In this document: positions 49,038 to 60,110 of the stretch, piece by piece
How positions within the stretch are numbered: the stretch's first letter is position 1
Layout: each line of letters begins with the position of its first letter
Assembly (NCBI GenBank): GCA_965262715.1
Contig: OZ253553.1
Span: 2,144,001 to 2,208,000 of the forward strand
DNA from: Bdellovibrionales bacterium
Lineage (GTDB): Bacteria > Bdellovibrionota > Bdellovibrionia > Bdellovibrionales > JAUICD01
DNA length: 64,000 nucleotides
Direction of reading: 5' to 3'
Position numbers and translations under genes: made by a program
Notes under the pieces: generated by a model
The model's database searches: none
Told to the model about the DNA's origin: nothing
Seen by the model: the letters and a program-made list of their open reading frames with translations, nothing else

Positions 49038-49334
49038 ATGAAACTTTCAAAGACAAAGACCATAACTCAACTTAGAAACTCACTTTTTAAGACTTTTGAT
49101 GAAGTGATTGAAGGGCAATCTCAAGTTGTTATGCACAAAAAAGGTGATATGGTAGCAATAGTTCCCATACATGAAATAGAAAGGCTTGAAGATGAAATCA
49201 AGCTTCATAAAAATCTTGCTATTGGCTATGCTCAAGCTTTAAGAGGAGAAGGAATTTCTACTCAGACCTTAAAAAGGAGACTTAAAGAAAAGGAAAAAGA
49301 TTTGAGAAAAGATATAGTAAAAGTGGACATCTAA
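49038..49334 (+). CDS. Phd/YefM family antitoxin
   Basis: TITQLRNSL..FDEV..QVVMHKKG..AIVP pattern; operator palindrome. Confidence 0.8.
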   Translation: MKLSKTKTITQLRNSLFKTFDEVIEGQSQVVMHKKGDMVAIVPIHEIERLEDEIKLHKNLAIGYAQALRGEGISTQTLKRRLKEKEKDLRKDIVKVDI

Positions 49335-49434
49335 ATCCGAAGATGATTTAAGAGAAATGGCTGAATACATTACAAAAAATTTCAATGTCGGCTGGCTGCC
49401 AAAAAGTAGCTACAGCATTTTTAGCGATTTATAG
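49311..49434 (+). pseudogene. truncated RelE/ParE toxin remnant
   Basis: KWTSKSEDDLREMAEYITKNF is a typical ParE N-terminus; no in-frame start and the rest is missing. Confidence 0.7.
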
Positions 49435-49459
49435 AGCAAGAAAAAAGAGTAAATGGCTT

Positions 49460-49984
49460 ATGGCTGAAATGGAATTCTACAAACAAGACAATATTGATGA
49501 AAATCTATTCAAGGATGTCAAATGCCTAGCTGATAAAATTCTAAACCATTTGAATAAACCAAAAATTCGTGAAAAAATCTGTGAAGCTAATAAACTTGGA
49601 AATAACAGTCAGCAGATTCAAAAGGTTTTCCAAGGATATCTTGAATCGTTAGATTTTTCATCAGAGAAAAAAGGCTTATTTAAAGATACTCCAAATAAGT
49701 CACTTAGACCGGATTTTTTTAAAGAAATTGACTCATATAATGGTATATTAATTGAGGTTGAGAGGGGGAAGACCACAATCAATAACATGGATATGCTTGA
49801 TTTCTGGAAGTGTCATATTTGCCCAAAAGCAAACTTTCTTTTTTTATTTGTTCCCATAAAACTGCGTCAAAATAATAAAGATAAACCTCGTGATGAGTTC
49901 AAGACTGTAAAAGGCCGTATAGAATCCTTCTTCAATGAAGATACTTATACCAATGTAAAAGCCGTTTTCCTATTTGGATATTAA
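49460..49984 (+). CDS. restriction-endonuclease-like PD-(D/E)xK protein
   Basis: LRPDFF...ILIEVERGKT...DMLDFWK. Confidence 0.6.
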   Translation: MAEMEFYKQDNIDENLFKDVKCLADKILNHLNKPKIREKICEANKLGNNSQQIQKVFQGYLESLDFSSEKKGLFKDTPNKSLRPDFFKEIDSYNGILIEVERGKTTINNMDMLDFWKCHICPKANFLFLFVPIKLRQNNKDKPRDEFKTVKGRIESFFNEDTYTNVKAVFLFGY

Positions 49985-50417
49985 CAAAGGTGACAAGCTC
50001 TCTTTAGTATAGTGCTCTATTGTTTAATGCCAATTCAAAGTTGAGTGATCATAAGTATACACTACAAATATAAAATTAAGTTTTTTTTAAAATATACTTT
50101 TAAAAACCTGTCTAGCTGATTAAAATATAAGGGTTTTATAAGATAAATGTCAGGTTTTATCAAAAAAAATCAATGTAGTGTATATTTTTAATCACGAAGT
50201 CAGGAGATTCAATTTAACCTATAAAATAACAGAGGATAAAAGATACTTATTAAAATATTCCCAAATGAGGTTAAAAATGACTTCTTTTGAGTCGACATAA
50301 GAATAATTCACTAGCACAAAACTGAAATAGAAGTTAAAATAATCTTGACATCAAGAAACTCCATATGATATGCAACAGGTAGTTTTTTTGAGGTACTTAA
50401 AGATATAAGGAGATAAC

Positions 50418-50870
50418 ATGATAACGGCTTTAGATGTTTCTGAATATTTTTTAAAAGGATTAAGTGAGCCAGATGAAGGTGATATTATTTCCAATTTAAA
50501 GCTTCAAAAATTGCTTTATTACGCTCAAGGTATCCATCTAGCAAAATATGATGAACCTTTATTCAAAGATGAAATTGTTCATTGGCAACTTGGGCCTGTC
50601 GTTAAATCAGTGTATAAAAAATATAAAGAATATAATAATAAAGCATTAATTATACCAGATGAAATAGAGAATATTTCAAATTTTTCTAACACACATAAAG
50701 ACAGCATCAGGCTAACCTATAATAACTATGGCCAGTACTCTGCTTGGGTATTAAGTCAAAAAACACATCAAGAGGACCCATGGAAAAACACAGATCAGGA
50801 TGACATTATTACAAAAACGGCTATAAAAACATTTTTTAAGGTAGAGTTACCACGCTTAGGTGTTATTTAA
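50418..50870 (+). CDS. Panacea/DUF4065 (SocA/GepA-like) antitoxin
   Basis: ISNLKLQKLLYYAQG, WQLGPV, THQEDPW; AAGGAG RBS. Confidence 0.9.
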   Translation: MITALDVSEYFLKGLSEPDEGDIISNLKLQKLLYYAQGIHLAKYDEPLFKDEIVHWQLGPVVKSVYKKYKEYNNKALIIPDEIENISNFSNTHKDSIRLTYNNYGQYSAWVLSQKTHQEDPWKNTDQDDIITKTAIKTFFKVELPRLGVI

Positions 50871-51273
50871 AAAGTTGATTAACCCCTCAAAATATCTCCA
50901 AAAAGAATCAGTAAGTTTCCAAGAAACTCCAAGCTTTCAAAAAAGCCCCAATACGCTTAAACCCTACTTCGATTTTCAATATATCGATCGTAAAAATATA
51001 AAAAAAATAGCAAAAGAAGACTGGGAACAATTCACGAAAAAGCTAAGAATGTTAAAAGATCGTTCATGGGATGAAATAAATTCAAGCTCCAAAGGTCAAT
51101 TTGGATATGAAACTATACCAATAAAAAACCTTAGAAAGCCCCTAAACAATCCATTTGATGAAAACAAAGTCTATGTGTTTAAGTATTCTCAAAAAGGAAG
51201 ATTTTTAGGGTATAAAAAGCAAGATATTTTTTATATCATAAAAGTAGACCCAACTCATGAATATGATAAATAA
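50860..51273 (+). CDS. putative RelE-fold toxin paired with the Panacea antitoxin
   Basis: Overlaps the antitoxin; basic protein ending GRFLGY...FYIIKVDPTHE. Confidence 0.6.
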   Translation: MLFKKLINPSKYLQKESVSFQETPSFQKSPNTLKPYFDFQYIDRKNIKKIAKEDWEQFTKKLRMLKDRSWDEINSSSKGQFGYETIPIKNLRKPLNNPFDENKVYVFKYSQKGRFLGYKKQDIFYIIKVDPTHEYDK

Positions 51274-51367
51274 ACTAAAAATTAGCTTATAAGCTTTAAG
51301 AATTCTAAAAAACGTCTTTAAGAGTGAGGATTTCAAAGATTAACTCTAAAACCTCACTCTTTGAGAG

Positions 51368-51790
51368 AAATGGCTGACGATAAGCCGGATTCTGTAAAAT
51401 CAAAAAAAGACGTCATATCTCTCACACTTTTGACTTTTGCATCCATTCATCTGGGAGATACATTACTGCATCCCTCAGAGCCACAGGCTCGTAGAGCTAC
51501 AAGCTCATAGAGCCTAAGCTTGCAGAGCCATAAGCTCATGCGATCAACCCGAAAGCAGGTGCTGGCTACACTTTTTATGCTCTCCTATTTGATCTTGCTT
51601 CGCACAGAGTTTAGCTGGTTTCACTACAGCAATTGTTTCCTTAAAAGGAAACAATCCTGTACATACTTTCTGTTCCACTTGTCCTCACTTTACAGTGGAG
51701 GGGCGTTACCCCTTGTGCTGCCATACGAAGTCCGGACTTTCCTCTCTGCTATACCAAACGACATAACAGAGCGAATGCATATCAACCGCC
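51368..51790 (-). ncRNA. rnpB: RNase P RNA (type A) with tandem-hairpin insertion
   Basis: Minus strand carries GAGGAAAGTCCGGAC, AAGCAAGATCAAATAGG, CAGATGAATG and ACAGAATCCGGCTTATCG conserved blocks. Confidence 0.95.
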
Positions 51791-51795
51791 TATTT

Positions 51796-51824
51796 ATAGT
51801 AACAATTTTTACTGAATTTGACAA
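51796..51824 (-). promoter_or_regulatory. sigma70-type promoter of rnpB
   Basis: TTGTCA-17 bp-TACTAT with an extended TG, ending 5 bp before the predicted RNA 5' end. Confidence 0.7.
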
Positions 51825-51855
51825 GGTTTAAGGTTTGGTTTTGGCCATACTATTT

Positions 51856-52188
51856 TTATTTAGGTTCAAGAACAGGCTTGTTTTTTTGAAAGTTAACAAT
51901 AGGGGTAGGAAGGTCTGATTGAGATTGACTGGTAAGATTTTGATGTGCTTTATAAAGATCAACTGCTCTCTGGAGGTTCAACCAAAAATCAGGGGTTGTA
52001 TTAAATGTAGAAGCCAATTTTAGTGCTAAAATAGTTGAAATAGGCTCTTTATTATTAATAAGTCGATTGAGCACCTTCTCATCACAGTTAATGTGATCTG
52101 CTAGATCCTTTTGCGTTAATTGAAGTGGAATAAGAAATTCTTCTTTTAACATCTCTCCAGGCGTTGTTGGCATTCTTTTTATCTTCAT
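51856..52188 (-). CDS. higA: HigA family antitoxin
   Basis: PTTPGEMLKEEFL, TTPDFWLNLQ. Confidence 0.92.
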   Translation of the reverse strand: MKIKRMPTTPGEMLKEEFLIPLQLTQKDLADHINCDEKVLNRLINNKEPISTILALKLASTFNTTPDFWLNLQRAVDLYKAHQNLTSQSQSDLPTPIVNFQKNKPVLEPK

Positions 52189-52243
52189 TATAACAACCCT
52201 CTCCATTATAATAATCGGTTGCTTAATATCTAACCTTTACCCT

Positions 52244-52527
52244 TTAATGATAATCAGTAATTTCAACTTCTTTAGCTCCTTGTTTCGTCCATTTGAAAAT
52301 AATTCTCCATTGTCTATTAACATAAATCCTATAAAAAGAATTTTGAAGTTCCTTAAGACGATTACCCGGAATTGCTCTTAAGTCTTCAATATCTGTAGCT
52401 GCTTGTATTGCATCCAGTCTTCTTAAAACAATATTTTTTAGGCCACACCACTTTACCCCTTTCGACGGTAAAATGTTCTCATAAAAAAAGTCTTCATTAG
52501 TCTATCTTTAAAACTTAAAATAGCCAT
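52244..52527 (-). pseudogene. higB: HigB toxin, frameshifted after codon 8
   Basis: MAILSFKD, then a shifted frame TNEDFF...RRLDAIQAATDIEDLRAIPGNRLKEL...VNRQWRIIFKW...VEITDYH*. Confidence 0.85.
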
Positions 52528-52676
52528 ACATGTCTACTTGATATTTTATGTTGCTTGGTGGATTGAAAATAGATACTATCTATGACATACTATTGACATA
52601 TAATACTAATTAAATGTTGAAATAGTAAGCTTTGTCATCTGATAGTCTGGCATCCAGACAAATAAGATGGGGAAAC

Positions 52677-52828
52677 ATTTCCTTAATACGCTATTAAGGA
52701 ATGAAAAGATTCTCTTTTACTAAAAATGAACGGATTTTCTAGGCAATATCTTCCTGGGGCCGATGGTATAAACTTAGGCATTGTCAGAAATAGCCTTAAA
52801 AGAATAATCCAGCTCATTTTTAGTGAAA
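52677..52828 (+). repeat. structured repeat copy upstream of tRNA-Gly
   Basis: tttccttaa..ttaagg, TTTACTAAAAATGAACGGATTTTCTAGGCAA ... CATTTTTAGTGAAA. Confidence 0.65.
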
Positions 52829-52862
52829 CAAAAGTATATTTCAGTTTGAGTGAAACAATTTA

Positions 52863-52939
52863 GCGGGAATAGCTCAATTGGCTAGAGCATCAGCCTTCCA
52901 AGCTGAGGGTTGCGAGTTCGAGTCTCGTTTCCCGCTCCA
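52863..52939 (+). tRNA. tRNA-Gly(TCC)
   Basis: Cloverleaf; TCAGC-CTTCCAA-GCTGA; encoded CCA. Confidence 0.97.
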
Positions 52940-52962
52940 AACAATGTTTTGTGTCTGCAAAG

Positions 52963-53037
52963 GCCCATGTAGCTCAGAGGTAGAGCACACCCTTGGTAAG
53001 GGTGAGGTCACGGGTTCAATTCTCGTCATGGGCTCCA
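52963..53037 (+). tRNA. tRNA-Thr(GGT)
   Basis: Cloverleaf; CACCC-TTGGTAA-GGGTG; encoded CCA. Confidence 0.97.
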
Positions 53038-53241
53038 AACAGGATAAAAAAGACACAACAGAGCAATAAAAAGATTAAAGAATGTGAAAAAATAATTTAT
53101 AATCAATAAAGTCCCTCATGAAGGTTTATTTATTATGAAACTAAATATTCTTATAGACAAAAGAGTGTGATAAAGTTAAAAAAGAATACCTTTATGTATT
53201 TCATCTAATAATTTTAATTAATTTTTTTAAGGAGAAATGCC

Positions 53242-54432
53242 ATGGCTAAAGAAAAATTTGAACGTAACAAACCTCACGTTAACATTGGAACCATTGGACA
53301 CGTGGATCATGGTAAAACAACACTAACAGCCGCTATAACAAAAACTCTAGCTGAAACAGGTGGCGCAGTAGCGATGGACTATGAGCAAATCGACAAAGCT
53401 CCTGAAGAGAAGGAAAGAGGAATCACTATTTCAACCACTCACGTTGAATATGAAACAAACGCACGCCATTATGCTCACGTAGACTGTCCAGGTCACGCCG
53501 ACTATGTGAAAAATATGATCACAGGAGCTGCCCAGATGGATGGAGCCATATTGGTGGTATCAGCAGCAGATGGACCTATGCCTCAAACAAGAGAACACAT
53601 TCTACTTGCAAGACAAGTCGGTGTCCCTGCAATAGTTGTCTTTATGAATAAATGTGATCAAGTCGACGACCCAGAACTCCTTGATCTTGTGGAGTTAGAG
53701 ATACGAGAACTTCTTTCCAAATATGAGTTTCCAGGCGATGATATCCCAATTGTTCAAGGTTCTGCTCTTAAGGCGCTTGAGGGTGATTTATCAGATATGG
53801 GCAAACCTGCGCTTCTTAAATTGATGGAAGCCTGCGATAAATACATTCCAGAGCCTAAAAGAGACATTGAAAAGAGCTTTTTAATGCCTATTGAAGACGT
53901 ATTTTCTATTTCTGGACGAGGCACAGTTGTAACTGGCCGTGTGGACAGAGGCATAGTTAAAGTGAATGAAGAGGTAGAAATTGTAGGCATAAAAGAGACA
54001 ACCAAAACAACTGTCACTGGTGTAGAAATGTTCCGTAAGCTTTTAGATCAAGGACAAGCTGGCGATAACATTGGAGCTTTACTTAGAGGCACTAAAAAAG
54101 AAGATGTTGAAAGAGGCCAAGTCCTTGCCAAACCAGGTACAATCACTCCTCATAAGCAATTCAAAGCAGAGGCTTATATTTTAACCAAAGAAGAGGGAGG
54201 AAGACATACTCCTTTCTTCAAAAATTACAGACCTCAGTTTTACTTTAGGACAACAGATGTCACTGGTGTAGTCACCCTTAAAGAAGGGGTAGAAATGATC
54301 ATGCCAGGGGATAATGCCGAGCTGAGCGTAGAGCTTATTGCTCCTATAGCTATGGAGAAAGGATTAAGGTTTGCTATCCGTGAAGGCGGTCGAACAGTAG
54401 GTGCAGGAGTTGTTGCAGATATTACAGACTAG
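53242..54432 (+). CDS. tuf: elongation factor Tu
   Basis: [36 protein letters not shown]. Confidence 0.99.
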
Positions 54433-54486
54433 TAAATTACTACTAGATTTTTTATTTATATTGATTTTTAGATATGTTATCGTTTT

Positions 54487-54517
54487 AGGAAGAAGGCTTA
54501 TCCTTCTTCCTTTTTTT
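54487..54517 (+). terminator. intrinsic terminator-like hairpin between tuf and the tRNA array
   Basis: AGGAAGAAGG-CTTAT-CCTTCTTCCT followed by a T tract. Confidence 0.65.
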
Positions 54518-54523
54518 ACTTTT

Positions 54524-54879
54524 AGGGTAGTAGCTCAGCTGGTAGAGCAACGGACTTACAAATCCGTATCGCGGGTTCGACTCCTGCCTGCCCTTTTTGA
54601 CAAACAAAATGAAGGGTAGTAGCTCAGCTGGTAGAGCAACGGACTTACAAATCCGTATCGCGGGTTCGACTCCTGCCTGCCCTTTTTGACAAACGAAATG
54701 AAGGGTAGTAGCTCAGCTGGTAGAGCAACGGACTTACAAATCCGTATCGCGGGTTCGACTCCTGCCTGCCCTTTTTGACAAACGAAATAAAGGGTAGTAG
54801 CTCAGCTGGTAGAGCAACGGACTTACAAATCCGTATCGCGGGTTCGACTCCTGCCTGCCCTTTTTGACAAACGAAATAA
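54524..54879 (+). repeat. four tandem 89-bp units, each a tRNA-Trp-derived cloverleaf with an 8-nt anticodon loop
   Basis: Units start at 54524, 54613, 54702 and 54791; identical 71-nt tRNA-like body plus an 18-nt spacer. Confidence 0.95.
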
Positions 54880-54955
54880 AGGGTAGTAGCTCAGCTGGTA
54901 GAGCAACGGACTCCAAATCCGTAGGTCGCGGGTTCGACCCCTGCCTGCCCTGCCA
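54880..54955 (+). tRNA. tRNA-Trp(CCA)
   Basis: Canonical 76-nt cloverleaf; ACGGA-CTCCAAA-TCCGT; G discriminator plus CCA. Confidence 0.97.
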
Positions 54956-54975
54956 TTTTCAAATTATCTTGCCAA

Positions 54976-57504
54976 TCAAATTTTTCTTTGATTATTTAAA
55001 TACGTATAAGTAGCACTATCCCCCAAAAGTTTTAAATCACTAGGAGACCCTTTGGCTACTAAGAATCCCCCTTGCTCCCCTCCATCAGGCCCTAAATCAA
55101 TAATGTAATCACTAGACCTTACAACATCTAAATTATGTTCTATTAAAATCACAGAATGCCCCTTATCCACAAGCTCCTGGAGAAGACCAATAAGCTTTTT
55201 CACATCTTCAAAATGCAGTCCAGTTGTAGGTTCATCTAATATATAGAGATTTTTTCTGCGACCAGTTTTCGACAGCTCTTTAGATAATTTAATCCTTTGT
55301 GCTTCTCCTCCTGATAAAGTAGGAGAACTTTGCCCTAAGCGAATGTAATCTAAACCCACAAGACTTAGTGTTCTTAGCTTATTTTGAATATTTATATGAT
55401 TTTTAAAAAAATCTTTAGCCTTTAAGACCGTCATGTTTAAGATATCTGAAATGCTTTGTTCTTTATATTTTACAGCTAAAGTTTCAGAATTATACCTCTT
55501 ACCCATACACACTTCACATTGAGAGAAAAGGTCAGCCATAAAATGCATTTCTACTCTCACTTGTCCTGCTCCCTGGCAATGTTCACAACGCCCAGATTTC
55601 ACATTAAAGCTAAACCTTCCAGGTTTATATCCTCTTCTTCTCGACTCTGGCAGACGAGCAAAAAGCTCTCTAATAAAAGAAAACAAACCTGTATAAGTTG
55701 AAGGATTAGAGCGAGGTGTTCGTCCAATAGCCTTTTGAGTCACATTGATCACACTATCTAAATTTTTTGCTCCTATGATATTTGTATGAGGTTGAATAGG
55801 ATATTGTGATTTATAAAAATGATTGTGTAAATGATAAAATAACGTATCCATAATTAGTGAACTCTTTCCACTACCAGAAACACCTGTTACAGATACAAGA
55901 ACTCCTAGAGGTATATCAACATCTATATTTTTCAGATTATTTGCCGATGCGCCTCTAATATGTAACCAGTTTTGCGCTTTTTTATAATTCCGTTTTTTAT
56001 TTTGATATGCTACTTTTTCTTTCCTGAGATATTGTCCTGTCAAGCCTTTAGATGTTTTTTGAACTTCAATAGGGGAACCTATGGTTACTATCTCTCCTCC
56101 ATGATCACCTGCACCAGGACCAAGATCAACAACATAATCTGACCGCAAAATGGTCTCCTCATCATGTTCTACAACTAAAATAGTGTTCCCTCGATTTTTT
56201 AATCGATCCAAACTATCTAATAACTTATGATGATCGCGAGGGTGTAAGCCTACTGAAGGCTCATCTAACACATAGGTCACGCCTATTAGACTACTTCCCA
56301 ATTGATTTGCAAGACGCACTCTTTGATATTCTCCACCTGAAAGAGACCTTGCTGGACGTAGTAAGTTTAAATATCCAACTCCAATTTCACAAAGAGTGTT
56401 TACTTTGTCTTTTAAATCAACTAAGACTCTTTTTACAATTTCATAGGGTCTTTTAGACAACGAAAGATCCTTATCTAAAAAACTTTTTAATTCATTAAGA
56501 GTCATCAAAGATAAATCAACAATTGACTTGTTATTAACAAACACGTTCCTTGCAGCAATATTCAAACGACTTCCTTCACATTCATCACAAACAATATCAG
56601 CATTTTCTATCATATCATTTTCATCATCAGATAATATAGTTGATATATGACCTGAGCCTGAACATTTTCGACAAGCTCCTTTAACATGATTGAAACTAAA
56701 ATGACTAGGTTCCAGCTCATCAAAAGAAAAATAACATTCAGGACATGTGGCAACAGTAGATAAAAAGTGCTCTTTTTCAGGTTGAAGAATTCTAATTTTC
56801 ATATAGCCATTTGATAGTTCTATAGCTGTTTGTATACTCCTTTTAATTCTTAAATAAGCTTCTGAATTCATGATCACTTGATCTATTAGCAGATCAATAT
56901 AGTGCCTTTTTGTTCTTGTAAGTATTGGTAAAAACTCTAAATCGAAAGCCTTACCATTAACAAAACACTTGATATAACCCAAATTTTGCCAATGACGTAT
57001 TTCTTTAAAAAAAGAGCCTTTTTTTCCTCTAACAACAGGGGCTAAAATTAAAAATCTATCTCCACTTTTGAAACGCAAAACCCAATCTAAAATTGTATCT
57101 ACTGATTGGCCAATAACAGCGGTTTTGTGTTGTGGACACCTAGGAGTTCCTACCCTGGCGTAAAGAAGCCTCAAATAATCATAAATTTCTGTTATTGTTC
57201 CTACAGTGGAATTTGACGCAAATGAGAGTGATTTCTGCTCAATAGAAATAGAAGGAGAAAGCCCTGATATAGAATCAATATCTGGTTTTTTGAATTTTTC
57301 TAAAAAGTTTCTAGCATAAACTGAAAAACTTTCTACATAACGTCTTTGACCTTCAGCATAAATTGTATTGAAAACTAATGAAGATTTCCCACTTCCAGAA
57401 AGTCCTGTGACAACAGTCATTTTATTCCTAGGAAGAGTGACATTGATGCCCTTTAAATTATGTTCCCTAGCTCCTAAAACAACAATTCCTTTATCCTTCA
57501 TCAA
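54976..57504 (-). CDS. uvrA: excinuclease ABC subunit A
   Basis: GAREHNLK, GLSGSGKSS, LSGGE, DEPSVGLHPRD, second ABC cassette, zinc fingers. Confidence 0.95.
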   Translation of the reverse strand: MMKDKGIVVLGAREHNLKGINVTLPRNKMTVVTGLSGSGKSSLVFNTIYAEGQRRYVESFSVYARNFLEKFKKPDIDSISGLSPSISIEQKSLSFASNSTVGTITEIYDYLRLLYARVGTPRCPQHKTAVIGQSVDTILDWVLRFKSGDRFLILAPVVRGKKGSFFKEIRHWQNLGYIKCFVNGKAFDLEFLPILTRTKRHYIDLLIDQVIMNSEAYLRIKRSIQTAIELSNGYMKIRILQPEKEHFLSTVATCPECYFSFDELEPSHFSFNHVKGACRKCSGSGHISTILSDDENDMIENADIVCDECEGSRLNIAARNVFVNNKSIVDLSLMTLNELKSFLDKDLSLSKRPYEIVKRVLVDLKDKVNTLCEIGVGYLNLLRPARSLSGGEYQRVRLANQLGSSLIGVTYVLDEPSVGLHPRDHHKLLDSLDRLKNRGNTILVVEHDEETILRSDYVVDLGPGAGDHGGEIVTIGSPIEVQKTSKGLTGQYLRKEKVAYQNKKRNYKKAQNWLHIRGASANNLKNIDVDIPLGVLVSVTGVSGSGKSSLIMDTLFYHLHNHFYKSQYPIQPHTNIIGAKNLDSVINVTQKAIGRTPRSNPSTYTGLFSFIRELFARLPESRRRGYKPGRFSFNVKSGRCEHCQGAGQVRVEMHFMADLFSQCEVCMGKRYNSETLAVKYKEQSISDILNMTVLKAKDFFKNHINIQNKLRTLSLVGLDYIRLGQSSPTLSGGEAQRIKLSKELSKTGRRKNLYILDEPTTGLHFEDVKKLIGLLQELVDKGHSVILIEHNLDVVRSSDYIIDLGPDGGEQGGFLVAKGSPSDLKLLGDSATYTYLNNQRKI

Positions 57505-57570
57505 TTACCTCAATCATGGATTTGGTCACATTCCATAAAGGAAATCATTTTACCTACTCTTTTGATTAGC

Positions 57571-57664
57571 AGTCAAGAGATACCTAAGGAAGTGGCAAGA
57601 TATCTGCTACAAAAATATTAATTCTTTTAAGATGTTGGAGGCTGTTGCTGTTTTGATAGTAAAT
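57571..57664. repeat. 94-bp target-site duplication, left
   Basis: Identical to 59618..59711. Confidence 0.93.
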
Positions 57665-59617
57665 CCTGAGTTTGACAGTTGCGAAAATAAAGTTGAGTTA
57701 TTTTAGTTAGTTACAGTGGATGTGTGATTTTGTACCACTACATTTTGATTTTGTGGTAGAGATTTAAGAGATTGTTTGTAGGTTTAAGTAGATTCAATTT
57801 TAAGTTGTTTTGATGGGATCTTAACTCCTATAGCTTTAAATACATCAGCGTTATTGCCATAAATATCTGTTCTTATCCAAATAGTTTTGTTTTTATATCT
57901 GACAGGTATAGCTCGTACTTCTTTCAGCTTTGACATAGCTTCCGCTACACTCAATGGCCTTGACTTTATTCTCTTGTCTGTGATCGCTTTATCTTTTAAT
58001 GTGATGTTTCTTTGATGTAACTTCTTTGCAAAATAAGCCTCACATAAGTAAGATAAAAAACACACAACTAAATGACCTAATATCCTCTTATCTGTCCAGT
58101 GGAACATAGGACGTGTCTTTAATGTACCCTTCAACTCTCTAAATGAATTCTCTACCTTCCATAATTGCTTATAGTTCATTATAATCTCTTCAGAGCTTAA
58201 ATCTGTGTTTGTAATTATTCCAAAAAAACCATCTGTCCTCTCTGATTGTTCTATAGCTGACTTATTTAAAGTAGGCTTGCCTTTACTCTTAGGATGAACA
58301 ATATACTTCTTATAATTACTATTAGATAAAAAAGATCTTGTGCTTATGGACTTCTTTGATAATTGAGCTTCTATCTTAGATAGAATATCTTCTCTTACTT
58401 TCTTATCTCGTTCTGCTCTCTTTCTCGACCAGGTAATTATACAACGATCATTATTATAGCTTGTCTCGTATATAGCTAAATCTTCATTTATAAATTTAAA
58501 ATTCTTTAAATTGTATATCTCTGCATGACGATCCTTTAATAAACCTAGCTTTAATCCTACTATAAATTCATCTCCCTTTGCTTTTAATGATTGGAGATTC
58601 TCATTAGAAAATAAACCTCTATCTCCTACTAATATAAATCTTCTGATCTTAAACTTCTTTTTTAGCTTCGTCATAACTGAAGGTATTGTTTTACCTTCAA
58701 ATGTATTCCCAGGATAAACATCAAAGCCTAAGGGCATACCTTCTGTATCTACTAAAAGTCCAAATACCACTTGTGTGCAATCACTCCTCTTCTCTTTGCT
58801 ATAACCAAACCTTCGAAGATTATCTAAATCCTCACGGGTACTCTCAAATCTCAATGTCGTTAAATCATACAAAATAACATCACACTCATTGAAAAAACTT
58901 AATTGAGACTTACCTCGCATATAAAGAGTCTTCTCTATATCTTCTTTATGCTTACTTAGAATATCTAAAGAACGATAAATGTCTTGAAGATGAAGCTCCC
59001 CTTCTAAAAAATCAGGATAAAATAACTTCTGCCAGTGTGAAAATACTTTAAGCTTAGAACAAGGCTCTACAAAACGACTTATAACCAATGTAAAAATAAT
59101 CTTAACAAAATCAAATTGCACTTTACGATGCTTCTGTTTTAAATCTGTTAATAATCTATAGAGATTTAATTGTTTAAAAATAGTATCTATTATAAGCAAA
59201 GGACCTAAAATAAAAGTGTCTTTTACATCAATCTCTTTTAATAACTTACTAGCAGGAATTATCTCTAACTCTTTAGATAATACTTCTAGAAGCTTCTTCA
59301 AGTTAACTTCCTTATCCGCGGCTTTACCTAAAGACATTAGAATCCTTTGCTTCACTTGAGAACCTAATCTGTAGCTCTCAACAAGATGATAATATATGTC
59401 TCCTCTCGGATTTCTTGTAGACCTTATGAACATAAAAATACATTACAAGAAAAATATAAAAAATAAAAGAAAATAAGGTATATGACGCGTAGTGTATGAT
59501 AAATAAGTACACTACACTTTTTGACCAAAATACAAACACAATAACCGCTAATGACTATAAATACAACATTCCTTGAAAAAAATATCACGAAAATTCAAAT
59601 TAAGTGTCAAACTCAGG
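57665..59617 (-). mobile_element. IS1634-family insertion sequence
   Basis: 13-bp perfect TIR CCTGAGTTTGACA/TGTCAAACTCAGG; single DDE transposase; long flanking direct repeats. Confidence 0.92.
57784..59433 (-). CDS. IS1634 family transposase
   Basis: YYHLVESYR, LYDLTTLRFE, FGYSKEKRSD, VGDRG, YKQLWKVENSFRELK. Confidence 0.92.
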   Translation of the reverse strand: MFIRSTRNPRGDIYYHLVESYRLGSQVKQRILMSLGKAADKEVNLKKLLEVLSKELEIIPASKLLKEIDVKDTFILGPLLIIDTIFKQLNLYRLLTDLKQKHRKVQFDFVKIIFTLVISRFVEPCSKLKVFSHWQKLFYPDFLEGELHLQDIYRSLDILSKHKEDIEKTLYMRGKSQLSFFNECDVILYDLTTLRFESTREDLDNLRRFGYSKEKRSDCTQVVFGLLVDTEGMPLGFDVYPGNTFEGKTIPSVMTKLKKKFKIRRFILVGDRGLFSNENLQSLKAKGDEFIVGLKLGLLKDRHAEIYNLKNFKFINEDLAIYETSYNNDRCIITWSRKRAERDKKVREDILSKIEAQLSKKSISTRSFLSNSNYKKYIVHPKSKGKPTLNKSAIEQSERTDGFFGIITNTDLSSEEIIMNYKQLWKVENSFRELKGTLKTRPMFHWTDKRILGHLVVCFLSYLCEAYFAKKLHQRNITLKDKAITDKRIKSRPLSVAEAMSKLKEVRAIPVRYKNKTIWIRTDIYGNNADVFKAIGVKIPSKQLKIEST

Positions 59618-59711
59618 AGTCAAGAGATACCTAAGGAAGTGGCAAGATATCTGCTACAAAAATATTAATTCTTTTAAGATGTTGGAGGCTGTTGCTGTTT
59701 TGATAGTAAAT
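59618..59711. repeat. 94-bp target-site duplication, right
   Basis: Identical to 57571..57664. Confidence 0.93.
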
Positions 59712-59884
59712 CATTGAAGTTACAAGTTATTTCTTGCTAAAGTAATCATTTTTTGATATCTGGCAATCAGGTTTCAGGCAAAGCTGGCAAACTGTAACTG
59801 ACAAATGGATATATTCTGAGTTTTTACATCTAAAAGATTTCCTTCCGAGCTTCTGACAGGTTTTAATAAAGGAGGAAATTTTAT

Positions 59885-59960
59885 TGGTGGCTTAGGACGG
59901 AATCGAACCGCCGACACAAGGCTTTTCAGGCCTCTGCTCTACCGACTGAGCTACCAAGCC
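59885..59960 (-). tRNA. tRNA-Phe(GAA)
   Basis: Cloverleaf on the minus strand; GAGGC-CTGAAAA-GCCTT; encoded CCA. Confidence 0.97.
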
Positions 59961-60110
59961 ACTTTTTTCTAATTTATCATAGGGTTCATTGATATAGCAA
60001 TACATTAACTTACGAATAAGATTGATTAGGTTCTAGAGTTTATTCTGAACAAGCTTGACTATCTGTTAAATCTGGCAGGTTTTAGGAATATAAGCAATAT
60101 TTTAATATAA

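Follow-up and report, generated by a model that had tools for sequence, protein, structure and literature searches.

Four disabled copies of tRNA-Trp stand head to tail directly upstream of the working tRNA-Trp gene in the genome of an uncultured Bdellovibrionales bacterium. The array is real and unusual, and we consider it rather probable that it represents an old disabled duplicate of tRNA-Trp that was expanded and homogenised in tandem and now consists of non-decoding pseudo-tRNAs. It is located in a window of 64,000 nucleotides (contig OZ253553.1, positions 2,144,001 to 2,208,000; positions below are those of the window unless prefixed with a genome) of the host genome (G000; one contig, 2.94 Mb, 33.6% GC, 92.7% complete). 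Five units, all on the forward strand, follow each other with an exact 89-bp period between 54524 and 54955 (starts at 54524, 54613, 54702, 54791 and 54880), for which TRF reported 4.8 copies with 97% matches and a score of 796. Units 1 to 4 (54524..54594, 54613..54683, 54702..54772 and 54791..54861) are identical to each other across 71 nt, while unit 5 (54880..54955) is the sole tRNA-Trp(CCA) of the genome, with G73 and an encoded CCA. The anticodon loop reads CTTACAAA in units 1 to 4 (8 nt; 54555-54562 in unit 1) as compared to CTCCAAA (7 nt) in tRNA-Trp, the variable region reads ATC (3 nt; 54568-54570 in unit 1) as compared to AGGTC, position 60 in the T-loop is T as compared to C, and base 72 is followed by a T-run as compared to GCCA, i.e., the units lack G73 and CCA. 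The period, the four identical cloverleaves and these differences had been described in an earlier note made from the letters alone, and all of them were borne out, as was the stepwise series of spacer variants (caaaatga, cgaaatga, cgaaataa, cgaaataa). The spacers have 18 nt each (54595..54612, 54684..54701, 54773..54790 and 54862..54879, forward strand); the first begins with the T that would be the discriminator and contains an exact TTGACA without a usable -10 box, the second differs from the first and the third from the second by one change, and the fourth is identical to the third and serves as the leader of the real tRNA-Trp.

Four sequencing runs were compared with a stretch spanning the end of tuf and unit 1; runs X1, X4 and X5 come from two studies, one of which may have yielded the assembly itself, with X4 and X5 taken from a single sample, and run X6 comes from a third study. 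In X1, X4 and X5, a contig of 116-119 nt loops from the spacer back into the start of the unit, with no gaps and one other letter. The depth of this contig (6.44, 32.8 and 30.1, respectively) was 2.8x, 3.8x and 3.6x that of the flank (2.3, 8.65 and 8.3), which fits approx. four copies, contig depth being a rough guide to copy number only. As contigs built from the reads of two studies thus contain the unit and its head-to-tail joint, with a depth 2.8-3.8x that of the flank, the array is no assembly artefact, and the duplication is real, as the earlier note had argued. An artefact of the long-read assembly, in favor of which one may cite a few single-base breaks within conserved genes, is largely refuted by these gap-free contigs and is hardly conceivable. 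The single-base frame breaks, found near G000:C1 1318120, 2188475 and 2708925 in conserved genes that are intact in a congener (G001), are probably residual long-read errors; one of the broken genes encodes a 1,380-aa protein with 83-89% identity to its G001 counterpart. The break at 2188475 corresponds to approx. 44475 in the window.

The array is part of a cluster with the order tRNA-Gly, tRNA-Thr, tuf, terminator-like hairpin, array, tRNA-Trp and convergent uvrA. The tuf gene (EF-Tu; 53242..54432, forward strand; NCBIfam TIGR00485, 749.5 bits) is the only copy in the genome (a single tblastn hit) and is followed on the same strand by an intrinsic-terminator-like hairpin with 10 pairs (54487-54511; z -2.70) and a T-run reaching 54519, located between tuf and the array and missed by the earlier note; uvrA (54976..57504, reverse strand) ends 20 nt past tRNA-Trp. 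Among 29 relatives, 21 have tRNA-Trp directly behind tuf, mostly with a structured gap between the two. In the congener G001, a normal tRNA-Trp is located away from tuf, and nothing tRNA-like was found downstream of tuf (loci L034 and L035). The usual order tuf-trnW-secE is broken in the host genome, where uvrA converges on tRNA-Trp (54956-54976) and secE is distant (G000:C1:189885-190034). An integration scar, i.e., a fragment of an att site, was considered and rejected, as the copies are upstream and 5'-complete, no gene is located between them, and they are flanked by tuf and uvrA. Elsewhere in the window (49038-52206 and 57784-59433), several small toxin-antitoxin-like genes (SocA-like, below the cut-off, and HigA) were observed around rnpB (51365-51790, minus strand), as was an IS1634 transposase adjoining tRNA-Phe.

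No promoter-like site was called between tuf and tRNA-Trp, and we thus infer that tRNA-Trp, and hence the four units as well, probably depends on read-through from tuf. It is also conceivable that the array itself controls tRNA-Trp, with the TTGACA of each spacer driving its transcription or the T-runs attenuating it; an exact TTGACA is found in only 0.4% of random 18-mers from the genome, and TTGACT likewise trails partial tRNA-Pro copies in G001. However, no promoter- or terminator-like site was called within the array, the sequence 17 nt downstream of TTGACA is TAGCTC, which makes a poor -10 box, and the corresponding spacer found in run X6 (see below) has neither TTGACA nor a T-run. Overall, a promoter or terminator function of the array is very unlikely.

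Individually, the units are predicted to fold like tRNAs. ARAGORN calls units 1 to 4 as tRNA-??? (taca), i.e., with a 4-base anticodon, and the Rfam model RF00005 places them in the tRNA family with 54.7 bits (67.6 bits for tRNA-Trp; gathering score 29). The predicted cloverleaf has all four stems (MFE -26.9 kcal/mol, z -2.55), including an anticodon stem of 5 bp, and a normal D-loop; matches to Rfam YrlA were weak (approx. 31 bits against a threshold of 69) and were ascribed to tRNA likeness. The earlier note stated that the units differ from tRNA-Trp in unpaired parts only; this is correct insofar as the changes affect the loops and the 3' end and leave the stems untouched, but the lost variable-loop bases, labelled unpaired, belong to the tertiary core of tRNAs. 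With 3 nt, the variable loop of the unit is outside the 4-5 nt of canonical class I tRNAs, and 3 nt is a feature of tRNA-Pyl (PMC7609411). While this length is shared with tRNA-Pyl, the latter has an anticodon stem of 6 bp, a short D-loop and its own synthetase according to the same source (PMC7609411), as compared to a stem of 5 bp and a normal D-loop in the unit. A Pyl-like 6-bp anticodon stem can not form in the unit, where A is opposite A.

The features of a functional tRNA-Trp, i.e., CCA in a 7-nt loop as well as G73 followed by a 3' CCA, are both absent from the unit, which thus combines a tRNA-like fold with the lack of features needed for translation, as does a pseudo-tRNA of the tRNA-Other type. 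While CCA is encoded in all 34 real tRNAs of the genome, it is encoded in none of the units, and no match to RNase Z was found in the genome (92.7% complete); two genes of the PolyA_pol family could add CCA. That both main TrpRS identity elements (anticodon and G73) are altered, as the earlier note had pointed out, agrees with PMC12135181, where the anticodon is an identity element and a G73U change cuts charging by B. subtilis TrpRS approx. 17-fold. The unencoded CCA, the lack of an RNase Z match and the altered identity elements all favor the interpretation as pseudo-tRNAs. We also observed that the genome, with its one tuf, has no match to trpA, and that the two PolyA_pol-family genes are possibly a split pair of CC- and A-adding enzymes.

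Codon tests bearing on decoding, for which the earlier note had named an opal-type UCA anticodon with an inserted A and a UACA quadruplet reader, were performed on the host genome as compared to the congener G001, which does not carry the array, using 1,138 orthologue-like proteins. One decoding reading is an opal-type tRNA-Trp with the anticodon UCA and a bulged extra A, which would read UGA or back up UGG when the normal loop is cut. A C34-to-U change plus an inserted A accounts for the loop, and E. coli TrpRS need not tell C34 from U34 (PMC12135181). However, TGA was found under aligned Trp at 0 of 4,123 positions in the 1,138 proteins, TGA terminates 268 of 1,263 long ORFs, and G73 and CCA are absent from the units. 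Nine cases of TGA under Trp in a first pass were all located in short shadow ORFs and disappeared once these were removed. A UGA reader is thus extremely improbable.

A further decoding reading is a natural quadruplet (+1) tRNA, which would be trimmed, receive CCA from the host nucleotidyltransferases, be charged with Val or Cys or be mis-charged, and read UGUA or UGUG. Its structural basis is an 8-nt loop on a 5-bp stem, with U33 and the A37/A38 flanks in place, as in quadruplet or +1 suppressor tRNAs. The two PolyA_pol-family genes able to add CCA also speak for it, as do engineered E. coli scaffolds, which can be made to read four bases in all classes (bioRxiv 2021.04.26.441066). Moreover, the loop of the unit equals the loop of tRNA-Val(TAC) plus A; conversion from tRNA-Val(TAC) would explain the letters of the loop, over a comparison of 8 nt. 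Conversely, the units have no encoded CCA, carry U73 and have a variable loop of 3 nt, and enlarged loops occur rarely in nature, the tRNAs concerned being mostly not known to frameshift (PMC5009743). In-frame TGT-A occurs at 1,671 sites with an observed/expected ratio of 0.92 as compared to 0.85 in the array-less G001, i.e., it is not depleted, although a young element would leave little trace.

Among the 1,138 orthologue-like queries, seven frame breaks were found, of which two would need a +1 shift; when paralogues were allowed, there were 17 junctions, including nine needing +1, in a scan covering breaks more than approx. 12 codons from gene ends in genes present in G001. An in-frame TGT followed by a purine near two of these nine junctions (TGT-A near one and TGT-G near another) would fit a quadruplet reader, but both junctions are in a Cys-rich repeat family where TGT precedes the stop regardless. 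In addition, the new frame entered at the TGT-A junction is closed by a stop within six codons, the junction with TGT-G is a deletion of 20 nt, and TGT-T is found where a third paralogue has the same junction. With no productive +1 break at TGT-A and with TGT-A undepleted, the UACA reader put forward by the earlier note is not upheld, and we regard it as highly improbable. Within this coverage, neither matching +1 sites nor quadruplet avoidance was found in the host genome, which encodes a full standard tRNA set. Both decoding readings failed all genomic tests applied, and decoding by the units appears unlikely from the DNA; the absence of a codon-level footprint favors pseudo-tRNAs.

The proteins of the Cys-rich family, with a repeat of approx. 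50 aa, are encoded near G000:C1 54685, 62115, 73728, 83508, 876150, 1453024, 1629836 and 2735981. Many of these paralogues end directly after C-x-K-x-K and are followed by out-of-frame remnants of the repeat.

The option that one pseudo-tRNA was neutrally amplified, also raised by the earlier note, gains context from the frequency of near-identical tandem arrays (period of at least 40 and at least 95% matches) in the genus. There are 42 such arrays in the host genome and 72 in G001, and several are derived from tRNA genes. At G000:C1:858218-861235, seven identical 431-bp units were found, six of which end in bases 1-38 of tRNA-Ser(GCT) while the last enters the intact gene. In G001, bases 1-47 of tRNA-Pro(TGG) occur five times (L211:15854-17749) and bases 1-47 of tRNA-Pro(GGG) occur twice (L181:10724-11316) upstream of the respective real gene; in both arrays TTGACT is located within 5 nt after each partial copy, and the same G12-to-A change, perhaps reflecting a mutation hotspot at GCGC, is present in three of the seven copies. 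The Ser and Pro arrays have the layout of the Trp array, with leader and 5' tRNA part repeated head to tail and one intact gene last, which favors the reading of the latter as a pseudo-tRNA array. They differ in that their units end at base 38 or 47 and are in part stem-broken, while the Trp unit reaches base 72 with all stems kept. Partial 3' copies were also found downstream of tRNA-Arg(TCT), tRNA-Pro(TGG) and tRNA-Asp in the host genome (G000:C1:1103535-1104264, 937316-937716 and 2649859-2650230, respectively), and stem-breaking changes are present in the Arg and Pro copies of the host as well as in three of the seven Pro copies of G001.

A dispersed hairpin repeat, with a copy at 52670-52850 just 5' of tRNA-Gly, gave 144 merged genome hits when this copy was used as the query. 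The query, being one copy and missing diverged copies, overlapped 13 of 31 non-coding arrays; it did not overlap the Trp array, which counts against a mechanism shared with the other arrays and is a point against the pseudo-tRNA interpretation. Two CRISPR-like arrays were also observed in the host genome, one with approx. 59 units and a period of 63 (G000:C1:2603446-2607152), the repeat of which we take to resemble Cas12a-type repeats, and one with approx. 6 units and a period of 61 (G000:C1:2450771-2451225), the repeat of which presumably resembles type I-E.

Under the pseudo-tRNA interpretation, the leader and positions 1-72 of tRNA-Trp would first have been duplicated upstream of the working gene. 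The start of the spacer resembles the tail of the terminator, both being located after CCT, and this likeness together with TTGACA fits a copied leader, so that the missing GCCA would probably mark the breakpoint of the duplication rather than a separate loop mutation. The anticodon loop of the duplicate would then have been lengthened and its variable loop shortened by two bases; these changes predate the amplification because all four copies carry both of them. Disabling may have been a precondition for tolerating several copies. The unit would subsequently have been expanded and homogenised, possibly by slippage or unequal crossing-over, as the stepwise spacer gradient would suggest. Today, transcription reading through from tuf probably covers the copies together with tRNA-Trp; RNase P would then cleave each copy at its 5' end, and the copies would be left uncharged and turned over.

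A different interpretation, which we consider possible but unlikely, is that the units are maintained as a tRNA mimic outside translation, in the form of uncharged CCA-less cloverleaves that are either released by RNase P or retained within the tuf-trnW read-through RNA. They might sequester proteins that bind tRNAs, such as toxins, nucleases or modifying enzymes, or they might tune the maturation or dose of tRNA-Trp, and might be likened to B. cereus tRNA-Other or E. coli rtT RNA. As parts of the same joint reading, such a lineage-specific mimic would be kept by selection in several related species as a decoy or as a regulator of tRNA-Trp maturation, and would be disabled at the anticodon loop, the variable loop, the discriminator and the CCA while produced in amounts reaching up to fourfold those of tRNA-Trp. 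In its favor, none of the 42 paired bases of the units is changed, unlike in other tRNA-derived copies of the genus (those of Arg and Pro), and identity with the real tRNA-Trp begins exactly at base 1 (unit 1) and stops exactly at base 72; both observations fit poorly with a dead array. By chance, a loops-only pattern would arise with a probability of 0.07 if three events took place and of 0.03 if there were four. The earlier note's suggestion of a maintained tRNA-like RNA thus draws little from the loops-only pattern alone, while the relative described below, which seems to keep the loop lengths with a different spacer, gives a hint in its favor. As context, the genome encodes one PIN-domain protein and one RelA/SpoT protein and gave no match to trpA, and tRNA-Other provides a precedent (PMC3399842).

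Two sets of positions bear on the age of the units. T60 of the units is the state found in 28 of 29 relatives; the split between unit and gene may therefore predate a change in the working gene, which speaks against a simple pseudo-tRNA array. Conversely, C16 and C59 are common to the units and the working gene and are found in the Trp genes of none of the 29 relatives. This suggests that letters were exchanged within the array or that its origin is recent. In both cases the body could stay constant without selection, which weakens the case for a mimic. A decoy for an anticodon nuclease or an integrase is expected to keep the anticodon loop. In the units, however, this loop is the very part that is changed.

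A lead on persistence comes from run X6, in which an 81-nt contig (depth 17.6) matches 54550-54595, i.e., the 3' 46 nt of the unit, without gaps and with 2 other letters; an A-rich spacer of 12 nt follows, after which a further tRNA-Trp-like body begins, with T at position 16. In gap-free control comparisons with this stretch, tRNA-Trp showed 18 mismatches, the loci of the relatives at least 19, and no other host tRNA had 16 or fewer. As every real tRNA tested has at least 17 mismatches, a relative probably carries a tandem unit in which the loop lengths are unchanged, with U73, no CCA and a different spacer. The X6 tuf pieces listed have 1/173, 14/173 and 10/240 other letters at a depth of 2-3, which indicates at least two related organisms; 16 of 18 classified differences in these pieces are synonymous. 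There is no cover over 54433-54512 in X6, so that the tuf pieces and the unit contig are unlinked. For two differences in 46 nt (the mismatches being unplaced), P is 0.13 if the neutral rate is taken as 0.105 and 0.003 if it is taken as 0.2, and reaches 0.00002 within the range of rates assumed, which are rough guesses from short tuf pieces. The apparent persistence of the unit with another spacer, its depth of 17.6 as compared to 2-3 for tuf, and a divergence that looks low against the assumed neutral rates would be in line with a mimic rather than with a dead array. On the other hand, two X6 contigs have an extra C near unit position 23, which may or may not belong to the unit of the relative; if it does, the D arm is decaying, which would count against a mimic.

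Beyond this relative, the distribution of the array is narrow. A pattern combining the 8-nt loop and the 3-nt variable loop (2 mismatches allowed) was found in none of 383 other genomes of the order, in which tRNAs and repeats are frequently unassembled, and only in the host (1 of 384). The absence from these 383 genomes, which include the congener, agrees with a pseudo-tRNA array, and the restriction to one genome of the order speaks against a mimic. In none of 29 loci from relatives did ARAGORN detect a further copy at a distance of up to 1.5 kb from tRNA-Trp (11 of 40 relatives gave no locus). In larger collections, from which records of this or very near genomes may be missing, the anticodon stem of tRNA-Trp closed by an 8-nt loop was matched at 51 loci, of which 48 are in metagenomes, 2 in GTDB genomes and 1 in viral contigs. 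These 51 loci were rejected as homologues, as none has TACA, none is derived from tRNA-Trp and all have at least 21 mismatches to the unit; most resemble tRNAs for Lys, Phe or Asn with one extra homopolymer base. In the metagenome contigs (L036-L083) many tRNA-Lys and tRNA-Phe have an extra base in an anticodon homopolymer, and such 4-base anticodons are often sequencing errors. Only ordinary tRNAs, at approx. 80%, were found in phage records. The array is probably shared across a group of species.

By analogy, the array would work like a pseudo-tRNA, with tRNA-Other and the tyrT repeats with rtT RNA as the nearest cases. The E. coli tyrT repeats are reportedly located downstream of the gene and contain only the 3' end of the tRNA. 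They resemble the present array in that they derive from a tRNA, are repeated in tandem and share a transcript with a functional tRNA gene (bioRxiv 2024.07.17.603846), as the units probably do, while the array described here is upstream and consists of the whole cloverleaf minus the 3' tail. Positions 50000-60000 gave no match to Rfam rtT at E values up to 1. Among known systems with altered decoding, we take hopR to belong with the +1 frameshift suppressors. Frameshift suppressors and engineered quadruplet tRNAs (SufB2, sufD, sufG, qtRNAs) have in common with the unit only the 8-nt loop on a 5-bp stem; they are charged and keep the CCA, the discriminator and the tertiary core (bioRxiv 2021.04.26.441066), all three of which the unit lacks at the DNA level. 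Yeast mitochondrial tRNA-Thr (PMC3113583) and the exceptions covered in PMC5009743 are, like the unit, natural enlarged-loop genes derived from another tRNA. However, natural tRNAs with 8-nt loops serve codon reassignment or decoding in these sources, and no reassignment is seen here, where the standard tRNA set is full. B. cereus tRNA-Other is, like the unit, a Trp-related cloverleaf; it is poorly charged, acts outside translation and may form a tRNA-like part of some longer RNA, traits that the unit may share, but it retains the Trp anticodon and occurs once, at a genomic island (PMC3399842). The array described here, known from sequence alone, differs in its four copies in tandem, its place within the tuf-trnW cluster, its anticodon and variable loops of 8 and 3 nt, respectively, and its lack of CCA. 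Our literature search, with most subscription journals outside its range, yielded no description of an upstream tandem array of full-cloverleaf pseudo-tRNA-Trp.

As a dead array, these units would exemplify how a repeat-prone genome disables a duplicated essential tRNA gene and then amplifies the copy, and they serve as a warning for annotation pipelines that report 4-base anticodons. Natural enlarged-loop tRNAs are few and mostly not known to frameshift (PMC5009743), so that even a small chance of activity is of interest. If conservation in the relative holds, the array would represent a natural multi-copy tRNA mimic inside a core translation operon.
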